Notes: generated by a model from the sequence alone, not told the origin. 64,000 bases of DNA from Escherichia coli (GCF_041248615.1 NZ_CP158426.1); one strand, 5' to 3'. Shown: positions 35,225 to 35,941, counted from the stretch's first letter. Program-made: numbers and translations.

Positions 35225-35941
35225 TTGGGGAGACATTTAATGTTTGGCCATCTGTTACGATACTTTAGTTTCTGTAAAAAAGATTTATTAGTATTTCATC
35301 CTGAATCTGATTACTCAGATAATTTACATAAAGCCTTCTCTTTTACAAAAAGGCTAGGATTTAATGAAGAATGGAATGGGGTCACAAAAAACAAAGAATA
35401 TGATTATCAGGATGTATTCAGTCATGTCTGTCTGCAGTCTGGTGTGACAGACTTTTCCGCTTCAGCAGGACAATGCTTAAAGTGGAGTCATTATTTTCAG
35501 CCATATTTTGAGAATATCCTTGAATGTCGGGTATGGGTTACCGTTGGACAACTCTGGAAACAGGAACGATTTATTTACAATCCGTCAGTTGCGGATTTTC
35601 AGCGCTGGTCTGAAAAAGGGATTCAGCCTGAAGATTTTAGACATCACTCGGGGTTTAACTTTCATGCGTGGTTGACGACGGAAAATGGTGTGATTGTGGA
35701 TGTTTCCTTTATGAGTACGTTATCGCGGCGATTACCTGAACACCTGAGTGAAGTCAGTGGAAGTGTGATTATTGGCACGCCAGAGACGGTTCTTCCTGAG
35801 TATAAATATGTTCCCATGATTGTCGGTCAGAGGATTGTTGAGAAAATAGAAAAACGCTCTTTCATTGGTTTTCTGGCGCACGACGATATTGATTTATATA
35901 CAGTACCTGCAATCTTGGTTCCGGTATGGAAAGAATGTTAA
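35225..35941 (+). CDS. hypothetical protein, no recognised family
   Basis: 238-aa ORF in AT-rich DNA; alternative start at the second Met (35240). Confidence 0.5.
   Translation: MGRHLMFGHLLRYFSFCKKDLLVFHPESDYSDNLHKAFSFTKRLGFNEEWNGVTKNKEYDYQDVFSHVCLQSGVTDFSASAGQCLKWSHYFQPYFENILECRVWVTVGQLWKQERFIYNPSVADFQRWSEKGIQPEDFRHHSGFNFHAWLTTENGVIVDVSFMSTLSRRLPEHLSEVSGSVIIGTPETVLPEYKYVPMIVGQRIVEKIEKRSFIGFLAHDDIDLYTVPAILVPVWKEC

Follow-up and report, generated by a model that had tools for sequence, protein, structure and literature searches.

What does the lone open reading frame (ORF) that lies between the remains of two insertion sequences (IS) in an Escherichia coli genomic island encode, and what might it do for its carrier? 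The ORF occupies positions 35225-35941 on the plus strand of a stretch of 64,000 nucleotides (nt) of E. coli DNA (GCF_041248615.1, NZ_CP158426.1), to which we refer as the window, and was originally predicted to be an intact orphan gene, possibly cargo such as a defence, immunity, or effector protein. Our computational analysis shows that it is a real gene under purifying selection, which belongs to an unnamed family of predicted enzymes, new within the papain/transglutaminase-like superfamily, and which travels as a self-contained single-gene cassette in the variable cargo of islands, integrative and conjugative elements (ICEs), and prophage-like elements. As for its role, we give a probability of about one half to the reading that the product is a stand-alone conflict (immunity) protein, probably anti-phage, on the evidence of the genomic neighborhoods in which its relatives are found.

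Counted from TTG 35225, the longest ORF has 238 amino acids (aa). The frame is present as originally predicted, but its start had to be corrected since translation almost certainly begins at ATG 35240, giving a protein of 233 aa. We accepted this ATG because a Shine–Dalgarno-like motif lies 7 nt upstream, the equivalent Met is the first residue of homologs from other genera in the alignment, and nucleotide homology to these homologs starts at 35237. The Shine–Dalgarno-like motif overlaps TTG 35225, and RefSeq also starts this frame at ATG 35240, for a product (WP_000466879.1) annotated as a "hypothetical protein." The DNA is AT-rich, as had been noted, with a GC content of 39.5% for the coding sequence (CDS) and 35% at its third codon positions (GC3), compared to 50.1% for the whole window. 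When complete E. coli genomes were searched, the CDS was found in 66 out of 5426 (1.2%), in all cases on the chromosome and almost always intact. The E. coli copies form two allele groups, one at least 99% and the other about 97.7% identical. WP_000466881.1, the second allele, is carried by a different island of the CP4 type, again after a YagK/YfjJ gene and the same IS66 remnant. The two alleles differ by 11-13 synonymous vs. 4 nonsynonymous changes, which corresponds to a ratio of nonsynonymous to synonymous rates (dN/dS) of 0.08-0.09, while comparisons with Kluyvera, Klebsiella, and Providencia give 0.07-0.18. Broken copies are few: one E. coli copy split by IS1, one truncated, and one in Erwinia psidii. 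This conservation, together with the high-confidence fold prediction described below, speaks against the ORF being a non-coding artifact. A search of 28-46 kb of the window with Rfam matched tRNA-Phe only, with no RNA family overlapping the ORF, and no meaningful repeats overlap or bracket the gene.

The original prediction could assign the protein to no family, and databases of named families agree. In Pfam, the query has no match with the threshold relaxed to E ≤ 10, and 77 aligned members have none at E ≤ 0.001; there is also no usable match in PHROGs or PDB sequences for the protein and two profiles, and none in NCBIfam or PADLOC. Nothing relevant turned up in the literature, whether under the accession or under defence proteins of the transglutaminase-like or papain-like kind. 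Calling the protein an orphan was nevertheless wrong because an exhaustive search with its profile yields 387 clusters (at 50% identity) with E ≤ 1e-3, 114 of them with E ≤ 1e-10, whereas a word-indexed search returned only 11 clusters (from Kluyvera, Klebsiella aerogenes, Providencia, and unnamed assemblies). Most of the 387 clusters consist of proteins of 180-250 aa, mostly from Proteobacteria. In the AlphaFold database, there were 145 matches at E ≤ 1e-3, mainly from Proteobacteria, plus a cyanobacterium and Sulfurospirillum, nearly all labeled "uncharacterized," and members are also found in free-living soil and marine bacteria. The genome collection was scanned for members with a nine-sequence alignment as query, and one weak match (L094, E 6e-4), which adjoins lepA, was excluded as probably not a true member. 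The names "TmRNA" and "Tail protein from Bacteriophage," which UniProt gives to members A0A1C3RLV3, A0AB73G0Q2, and A0A8S7ISB2, look like annotation errors; "TmRNA" (A0A1C3RLV3) may reflect islands inserted beside ssrA.

Structure prediction gave the protein a recognizable enzyme fold, which is again at odds with the original view of it as an orphan. AlphaFold2 with an alignment of 77 members (17-68% identical to the query) produced a model with a predicted local distance difference test score (pLDDT) of 93.7 and a predicted template modeling score (pTM) of 0.89, the pLDDT being 71.2 with nine sequences only. The model is a single compact domain of 233 aa. In the 77-member alignment, which we also used to score conservation, residues C79, G103, H142, W144, T146, and P192 are invariant, position 154 is always acidic (Asp in 68 members, Glu in 9), and Cys79 is preceded by Gln78 in 56 of the 77. 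Cys79 opens a helix (79-94), His142, in a motif N-x-H-A-W-L-T, opens a strand (142-147), and Asp154 closes another (152-154). Three features expected of the superfamily were thus found: the predicted model has a Cys at a helix N terminus followed by His and Asp on adjacent strands, the predicted catalytic residues are conserved across the 77 members, and the modeled fold is similar to that of solved superfamily members. A papain/transglutaminase-like fold with a predicted Cys79-His142-Asp154 triad is well supported by the model, and the protein is predicted to be a soluble cytoplasmic thiol enzyme of about 230 aa that is presumably catalytically active. Since the scores of its structural matches are low, we consider the family to be new within the superfamily rather than part of any named family.

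The best structural match is the catalytic domain of SseI (SrfH; PDB 4g29), and the C3 deamidase domain of Pasteurella multocida toxin (PMT; 2ebf) and arylamine N-acetyltransferases are also among the matches. Only about 112 of the 233 residues superpose on SseI/PMT, with 12% identity, and a search of PDB sequences with our profiles A1 and A2 yields no such chain at E ≤ 10. Architecture differs as well: the SseI and PMT-C3 domains are C-terminal parts of secreted toxins acting in eukaryotic cells, whereas here the domain makes up the whole of a small cytoplasmic protein, which also occurs in soil and marine bacteria. The spacing between Cys and His, about 40 residues in SseI/PMT, is 63 residues here. 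The motif H-A-W-L-T...G-x-I-I-D-x-T resembles what we take to be the "HAW...D" signature of the transglutaminase core, which is a lead rather than a test, and the protein has no match to Transglut_core (PF01841) even at E ≤ 10. LapG and protein-glutaminase are exported proteins, unlike this one, which has no signal peptide. Compared to LapG, protein-glutaminase, TglA, and Transglut_core, there is an extra N-terminal helical region (residues 1-70), which has its own conserved positions (Y25, A32, and T36).

To see in which company the gene is found, about 30 distinct neighborhoods were inspected in genomes and metagenomes. The idea that it is cargo of mobile elements applies to the family at large. 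Islands with a P4-type integrase carry a member in 6 of the first 12 loci, and other carriers include SGI-4-like ICEs of Salmonella, Klebsiella, and Enterobacter, the edge of another ICE, a conjugative element in which the member lies amid Fic-VbhA and Phd toxin–antitoxin genes, prophage-like regions, and an element with three consecutive tyrosine recombinases. What moves appears to be the gene by itself. Nucleotide homology between genera stops at the borders of the CDS, no neighboring gene is conserved family-wide in all-against-all comparisons of 12 and then 33 further loci, and the small ORFs upstream of the members in Pseudomonas, Providencia, and L047 are mutually unrelated. Members that are 62% identical follow different systems, Iet vs. 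Gabija, and therefore argue for an independent cassette. The zinc-ribbon pair (33051-33856) and the YagK/YfjJ gene (34328-34894) are indeed on the same strand as the E. coli gene, but the functional link to the genes in 33045-34894 that the original prediction invited was dropped, since these neighbors are absent in other genera. A phage origin was dropped, given no match in 50,697 phage genomes and no significant viral structure match in BFVD, the sole match in IMG/VR being the E. coli gene itself. A plasmid origin was likewise dropped, as only 2 out of 72,556 plasmid records match, both of them distant matches from Pantoea.

Several of these neighborhoods contain systems of antiviral defence. 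In Kluyvera, Klebsiella, and Erwinia psidii, a P2-Old-like nuclease (PADLOC Old, 3.6e-77) is followed by a co-oriented member, and a member is again the next gene after Old on a metagenome contig, that Old being 98% identical. A type III CBASS (cyclic oligonucleotide-based antiphage signaling system) operon encoding cyclase, HORMA, TRIP13, and NucC is followed by a co-oriented member in two lineages in which NucC is only 45% identical. In Duganella, the member comes next, co-oriented, after a GajB remnant (Gabija), while at two loci IetA-IetS is followed by co-oriented members only 24.5% identical to each other. At an ICE edge, a member is convergent with a SIR2 protein (PDC-S65), another adjoins a weak PDC-M17B match, a third is two genes from a ThsB-like TIR protein, and in SGI-4-like ICEs the member is four genes from a type IIG restriction enzyme. 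Altogether, the gene adjacent to the member is a defence gene, known or candidate, in about 8 of about 30 neighborhoods, and six kinds are represented (Old, GajB, CBASS NucC, IetS, SIR2 PDC-S65, and PDC-M17B). This is a raw count, many of the contigs being short; in three further neighborhoods a defence gene lies within 2-4 genes. The family domain also occurs fused: in P0190 (L095:8001-9494), residues 4-182 match it (hhalign probability 99.6%), joined to a HEPN-containing protein of 300 aa, versions of which are also encoded by themselves (P0191 and P0192, 45% identity). The P0190 gene comes after three consecutive tyrosine recombinase genes. A protein of about 270 aa encoded after the member in Klebsiella aerogenes (L004:8861-9673), with weak PADLOC PDC-S31 matches only, has a 32%-identical counterpart after the member of a Pseudomonas-type CBASS locus (L073:7591-8373).

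Members also evolve fast. In every pair tested, the member has diverged faster than the neighboring defence gene: between L002 and L004, identity is 92% for Old but 75% for the member, and in the NucC loci (L013 vs. L014 and L066/L073) it is 99.6, 96.3, and 92.7% for NucC but 86.7, 86.2, and 78.3%, respectively, for the member. This faster divergence is an arms-race signature. In Erwinia psidii, where the adjoining Old is 99% identical to that of Kluyvera, the member is broken into three ORFs (L016:9995-10688), which looks like recent decay of the member alone.

Among the roles that the original prediction offered (defence, immunity, or effector cargo), defence is the best supported, because relatives directly follow Old, Gabija, type III CBASS, and Iet, and lie near SIR2/TIR genes. 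The effector and immunity parts were not supported, since the protein lacks a trafficking domain and a signal peptide, and its gene has no partner that is conserved. Like defence genes, members are patchily distributed, carried by mobile elements, recurrently found beside defence operons, and fast evolving. We therefore favor a stand-alone conflict protein and, more tentatively, an unrecognized anti-phage module found mainly in Proteobacteria, in which a thiol protease or deamidase of about 200 aa might act alone or as a portable add-on behind unrelated systems. In mechanistic terms, infection would activate the cysteine, and the activated Cys79 would attack an amide bond in a protein substrate of the phage or host. 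Cleavage of the substrate or deamidation of a glutamine would follow, activities that we propose because they are those of the nearest structural relatives, and as a result phage development would be blocked or the infected cell halted. A portable add-on would, for example, destroy phage-encoded inhibitors of Old, Gabija, CBASS, or Iet. We infer, then, an active enzyme with a protein substrate and an anti-phage role. The covalent modification of a protein target proposed here is the same in kind as that of Iet (IetA ATPase plus IetS subtilase-like protease), one of the neighboring systems. In contrast to Iet and to Lit, an abortive-infection protease, and other defence proteases of this type, which are serine or metallo enzymes, the predicted triad here is that of a thiol enzyme, with no sequence relation to PADLOC/NCBIfam models.

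A number of observations weigh against a stand-alone defence role. No model in PADLOC-DB v2.0.0 or NCBIfam release 20, anti-phage models included, matches the protein at E ≤ 1, and the structural matches from which the chemistry is read score weakly. About half of the roughly 30 neighborhoods have no recognizable defence gene, among them both E. coli island types, and the adjacency seen elsewhere is a raw count. In E. coli, expression is uncertain because the IS66 remnant has taken the place of the native upstream DNA. Finally, in SGI-4-like ICEs, the gene directly 5' of the member encodes a 181-aa lipoprotein (lipobox LVSAC; L020:9395-9940), an arrangement repeated in L011, L012, and L062. 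Lipoprotein and member may form a two-gene unit in this one sub-group, and such a pairing with a cytoplasmic enzyme does not fit a simple single-gene model. On a metagenome contig, a 48%-identical lipoprotein (L083:709-1281) is encoded 14 nt 5' of a member that has diverged strongly (27% identity over 85 aa).

How do other explanations compare? The enzyme could serve the defence operon upstream of it: it might process or activate one of the components, reset the system, or disable phage inhibitors of that system. This would explain why the member is almost always the last co-oriented gene behind Old, GajB, NucC, or IetS, separated from it by about 40-180 nt, and is never found upstream of it, why CBASS–member synteny is kept down to 45% NucC identity, and why a fusion to a HEPN protein exists. 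The partner systems are, however, mechanistically unrelated, close members (62% identical) sit behind different ones, homology between genera ends at the CDS borders, and the copies in E. coli, Providencia, ICEs, and plasmids have no upstream defence operon, which makes a dedicated accessory unlikely. A role as anti-defence or establishment factor, where the enzyme would inactivate a defence or stress protein of the recipient upon entry of the island or ICE, is less likely again. It draws on a Providencia member near ArdA and an integrase, on members that closely follow umuDC-like genes in SGI-4-like ICEs, on another close to umuD in a conjugative plasmid of Pantoea, and on the antirestriction gene that the E. 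coli islands also hold. Counter-defence genes are, however, not expected directly behind CBASS, Iet, and Old operons, and the family, almost absent from plasmids (the two records mentioned above), is missing altogether from phage genomes and sets of viral structures, in which anti-defence genes abound.

Defence also has to be weighed against explanations that place the enzyme in other kinds of conflict or in none. Since the best structural match is the SseI catalytic domain, with PMT also listed, the protein could be a toxin or secreted effector with deamidase or protease activity like SseI and PMT, belonging to a type VI secretion system (T6SS), a contact-dependent inhibition (CDI) system, or a toxin–antitoxin pair. 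A Providencia member does come after cdiA and a small gene, those of Kluyvera and Klebsiella have T6SS genes a few kilobases upstream, and one member, as noted, sits amid Fic-VbhA and Phd-type toxin–antitoxin genes. Yet the alignment reveals no PAAR, Rhs, VENN, or MIX-type domain at the N terminus, which is short and family-specific, and no signal peptide was seen on reading the N terminus by eye. There is also no conserved adjacent immunity or antitoxin gene, given that the small upstream ORFs are mutually unrelated, and the family extends to free-living soil and marine bacteria and a cyanobacterium; we consider a toxin highly improbable. The gene could instead be a hitch-hiking enzyme with a function outside conflict (e.g., a small-molecule amidase or acyltransferase), or the E. 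coli copy a silent relic between IS fragments. Many neighborhoods without defence genes, the arylamine N-acetyltransferases among the fold matches, a GNAT acetyltransferase after the member on the Pantoea plasmid, the IS66 remnant upstream in E. coli, and the broken copies in Erwinia psidii and in the E. coli strain with IS1 would fit such readings. Against these stand purifying selection within E. coli, recurrent adjacency to six kinds of defence genes, evolution faster than that of the neighbors, and a patchy distribution (1.2% of E. coli genomes), and we regard a hitch-hiker or relic as doubtful, about on a par with an anti-defence factor. Two other candidates were rejected. The gene is not the passenger of a composite transposon because it lies between truncated pieces of two unlike IS families, IS66 and IS21, with no repeats bracketing it. 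The idea of an Old gene since deleted from the E. coli locus was dropped, as a tblastn search of the window with Old finds nothing.

The window that contains the E. coli gene is identical to positions 928001-992000 of E. coli NRZ14408 (NZ_LT599825.1), and the gene sits in an island inserted at tRNA-Phe (pheV island). Its features are listed in Table 1.

Table 1. Coordinates of the gene, its predicted catalytic residues, and the elements around it (positions in the window)
Feature	Position	Strand	Evidence and remarks
IS66-family transposase gene, 3' end (remnant)	35009..35185	+	RefSeq partial CDS; 35035-35111 is 85-87% identical to tnpC
Candidate sigma-70 promoter, TTTACG-16 nt-TATAAT	35159..35186	+	Consensus scan, 10/12 matches
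Shine–Dalgarno-like GGGGAG	35227..35232	+	7 nt 5' of ATG 35240; read from sequence
CDS of 233-aa protein WP_000466879.1	35240..35941	+	RefSeq start; unnamed papain/transglutaminase-fold thiol enzyme family
Cys79 codon TGC, predicted nucleophile	35474..35476	+	Invariant in 77/77; N terminus of helix 79-94; follows Gln78
His142 codon CAT, predicted general base	35663..35665	+	Invariant in 77/77; first residue of strand 142-147
Asp154 codon GAT, predicted third triad residue	35699..35701	+	Asp/Glu in 77/77; strand after the His strand
IS21 remnant (3' end of istA and start of istB)	36305..36617	+	About 92% identity to the istA/istB junction, 36304-36623
P4-type tyrosine integrase and tRNA-Phe, end of pheV island	42292..43827	-	Integrase NCBIfam 9.5e-73; ARAGORN, Rfam

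The flanking remnants are those originally reported, IS66-like upstream and IS21-like downstream. The former accompanies the gene in both E. coli island types, and the latter carries the RefSeq label "Mu transposase domain-containing protein" (frameshifted, partial). The promoter-like site, which lies 54 nt 5' of the start, within the terminal part of the IS66 remnant, is a candidate only since such sites are not more numerous in the region than expected from shuffled sequence. Only IS debris separates the gene from the P4-type integrase (42292-43554), beyond which lies tRNA-Phe (43752-43827). Within this debris (36672-39523), IS elements are nested: the N terminus of an ISEc38 transposase is truncated by an IS3-family element (38110-39338), and the N-terminal 31 codons of the first ORF of the latter are duplicated, at 38973-39383 and 39380-39523.

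To the left of the gene, annotation shows CP4-type island genes, namely YagK/YfjJ, the zinc-ribbon pair, and an inovirus-Gp2-type gene, followed further left by genes for Hha, a GTPase, Ag43, DUF932, an antirestriction gene, a JAB/RadC gene, CbeA/CbtA, and then kps capsule genes. IS1414 (IS256 family; 31517-32725) separates the inovirus-Gp2-type gene (30757-31356) from the DUF7828/zinc-ribbon pair. In strain 746, the element at this place is ISEc31, which splits the Gp2-type gene into two fragments. The Ag43/Cah autotransporter gene is itself split, into fragments 14331-16448 and 19030-19764, by ISEc12 (IS21 family, istA/istB; 16534-18836). The opposite end of the pheV island has genes for group-2 capsule (kps) export at 308-8228 and a CbtA/CbeA toxin–antitoxin pair at 10886-11684, both being typical content of extraintestinal E. 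coli islands.

The E. coli gene adds to the variable cargo recognized in the pheV- and CP4-type islands of extraintestinal and animal isolates. If it is indeed a defence gene, its minimal papain/transglutaminase-fold thiol enzyme would be a new catalytic type in bacterial immunity, and several hundred clusters of "hypothetical proteins" would gain a name and a testable active site. The occurrence of one cassette behind several unrelated systems raises the question of whether some genes in defence islands are portable accessories rather than independent systems. Should the defence reading fail, what is left is still a new and well-defined enzyme family with a confident fold model.
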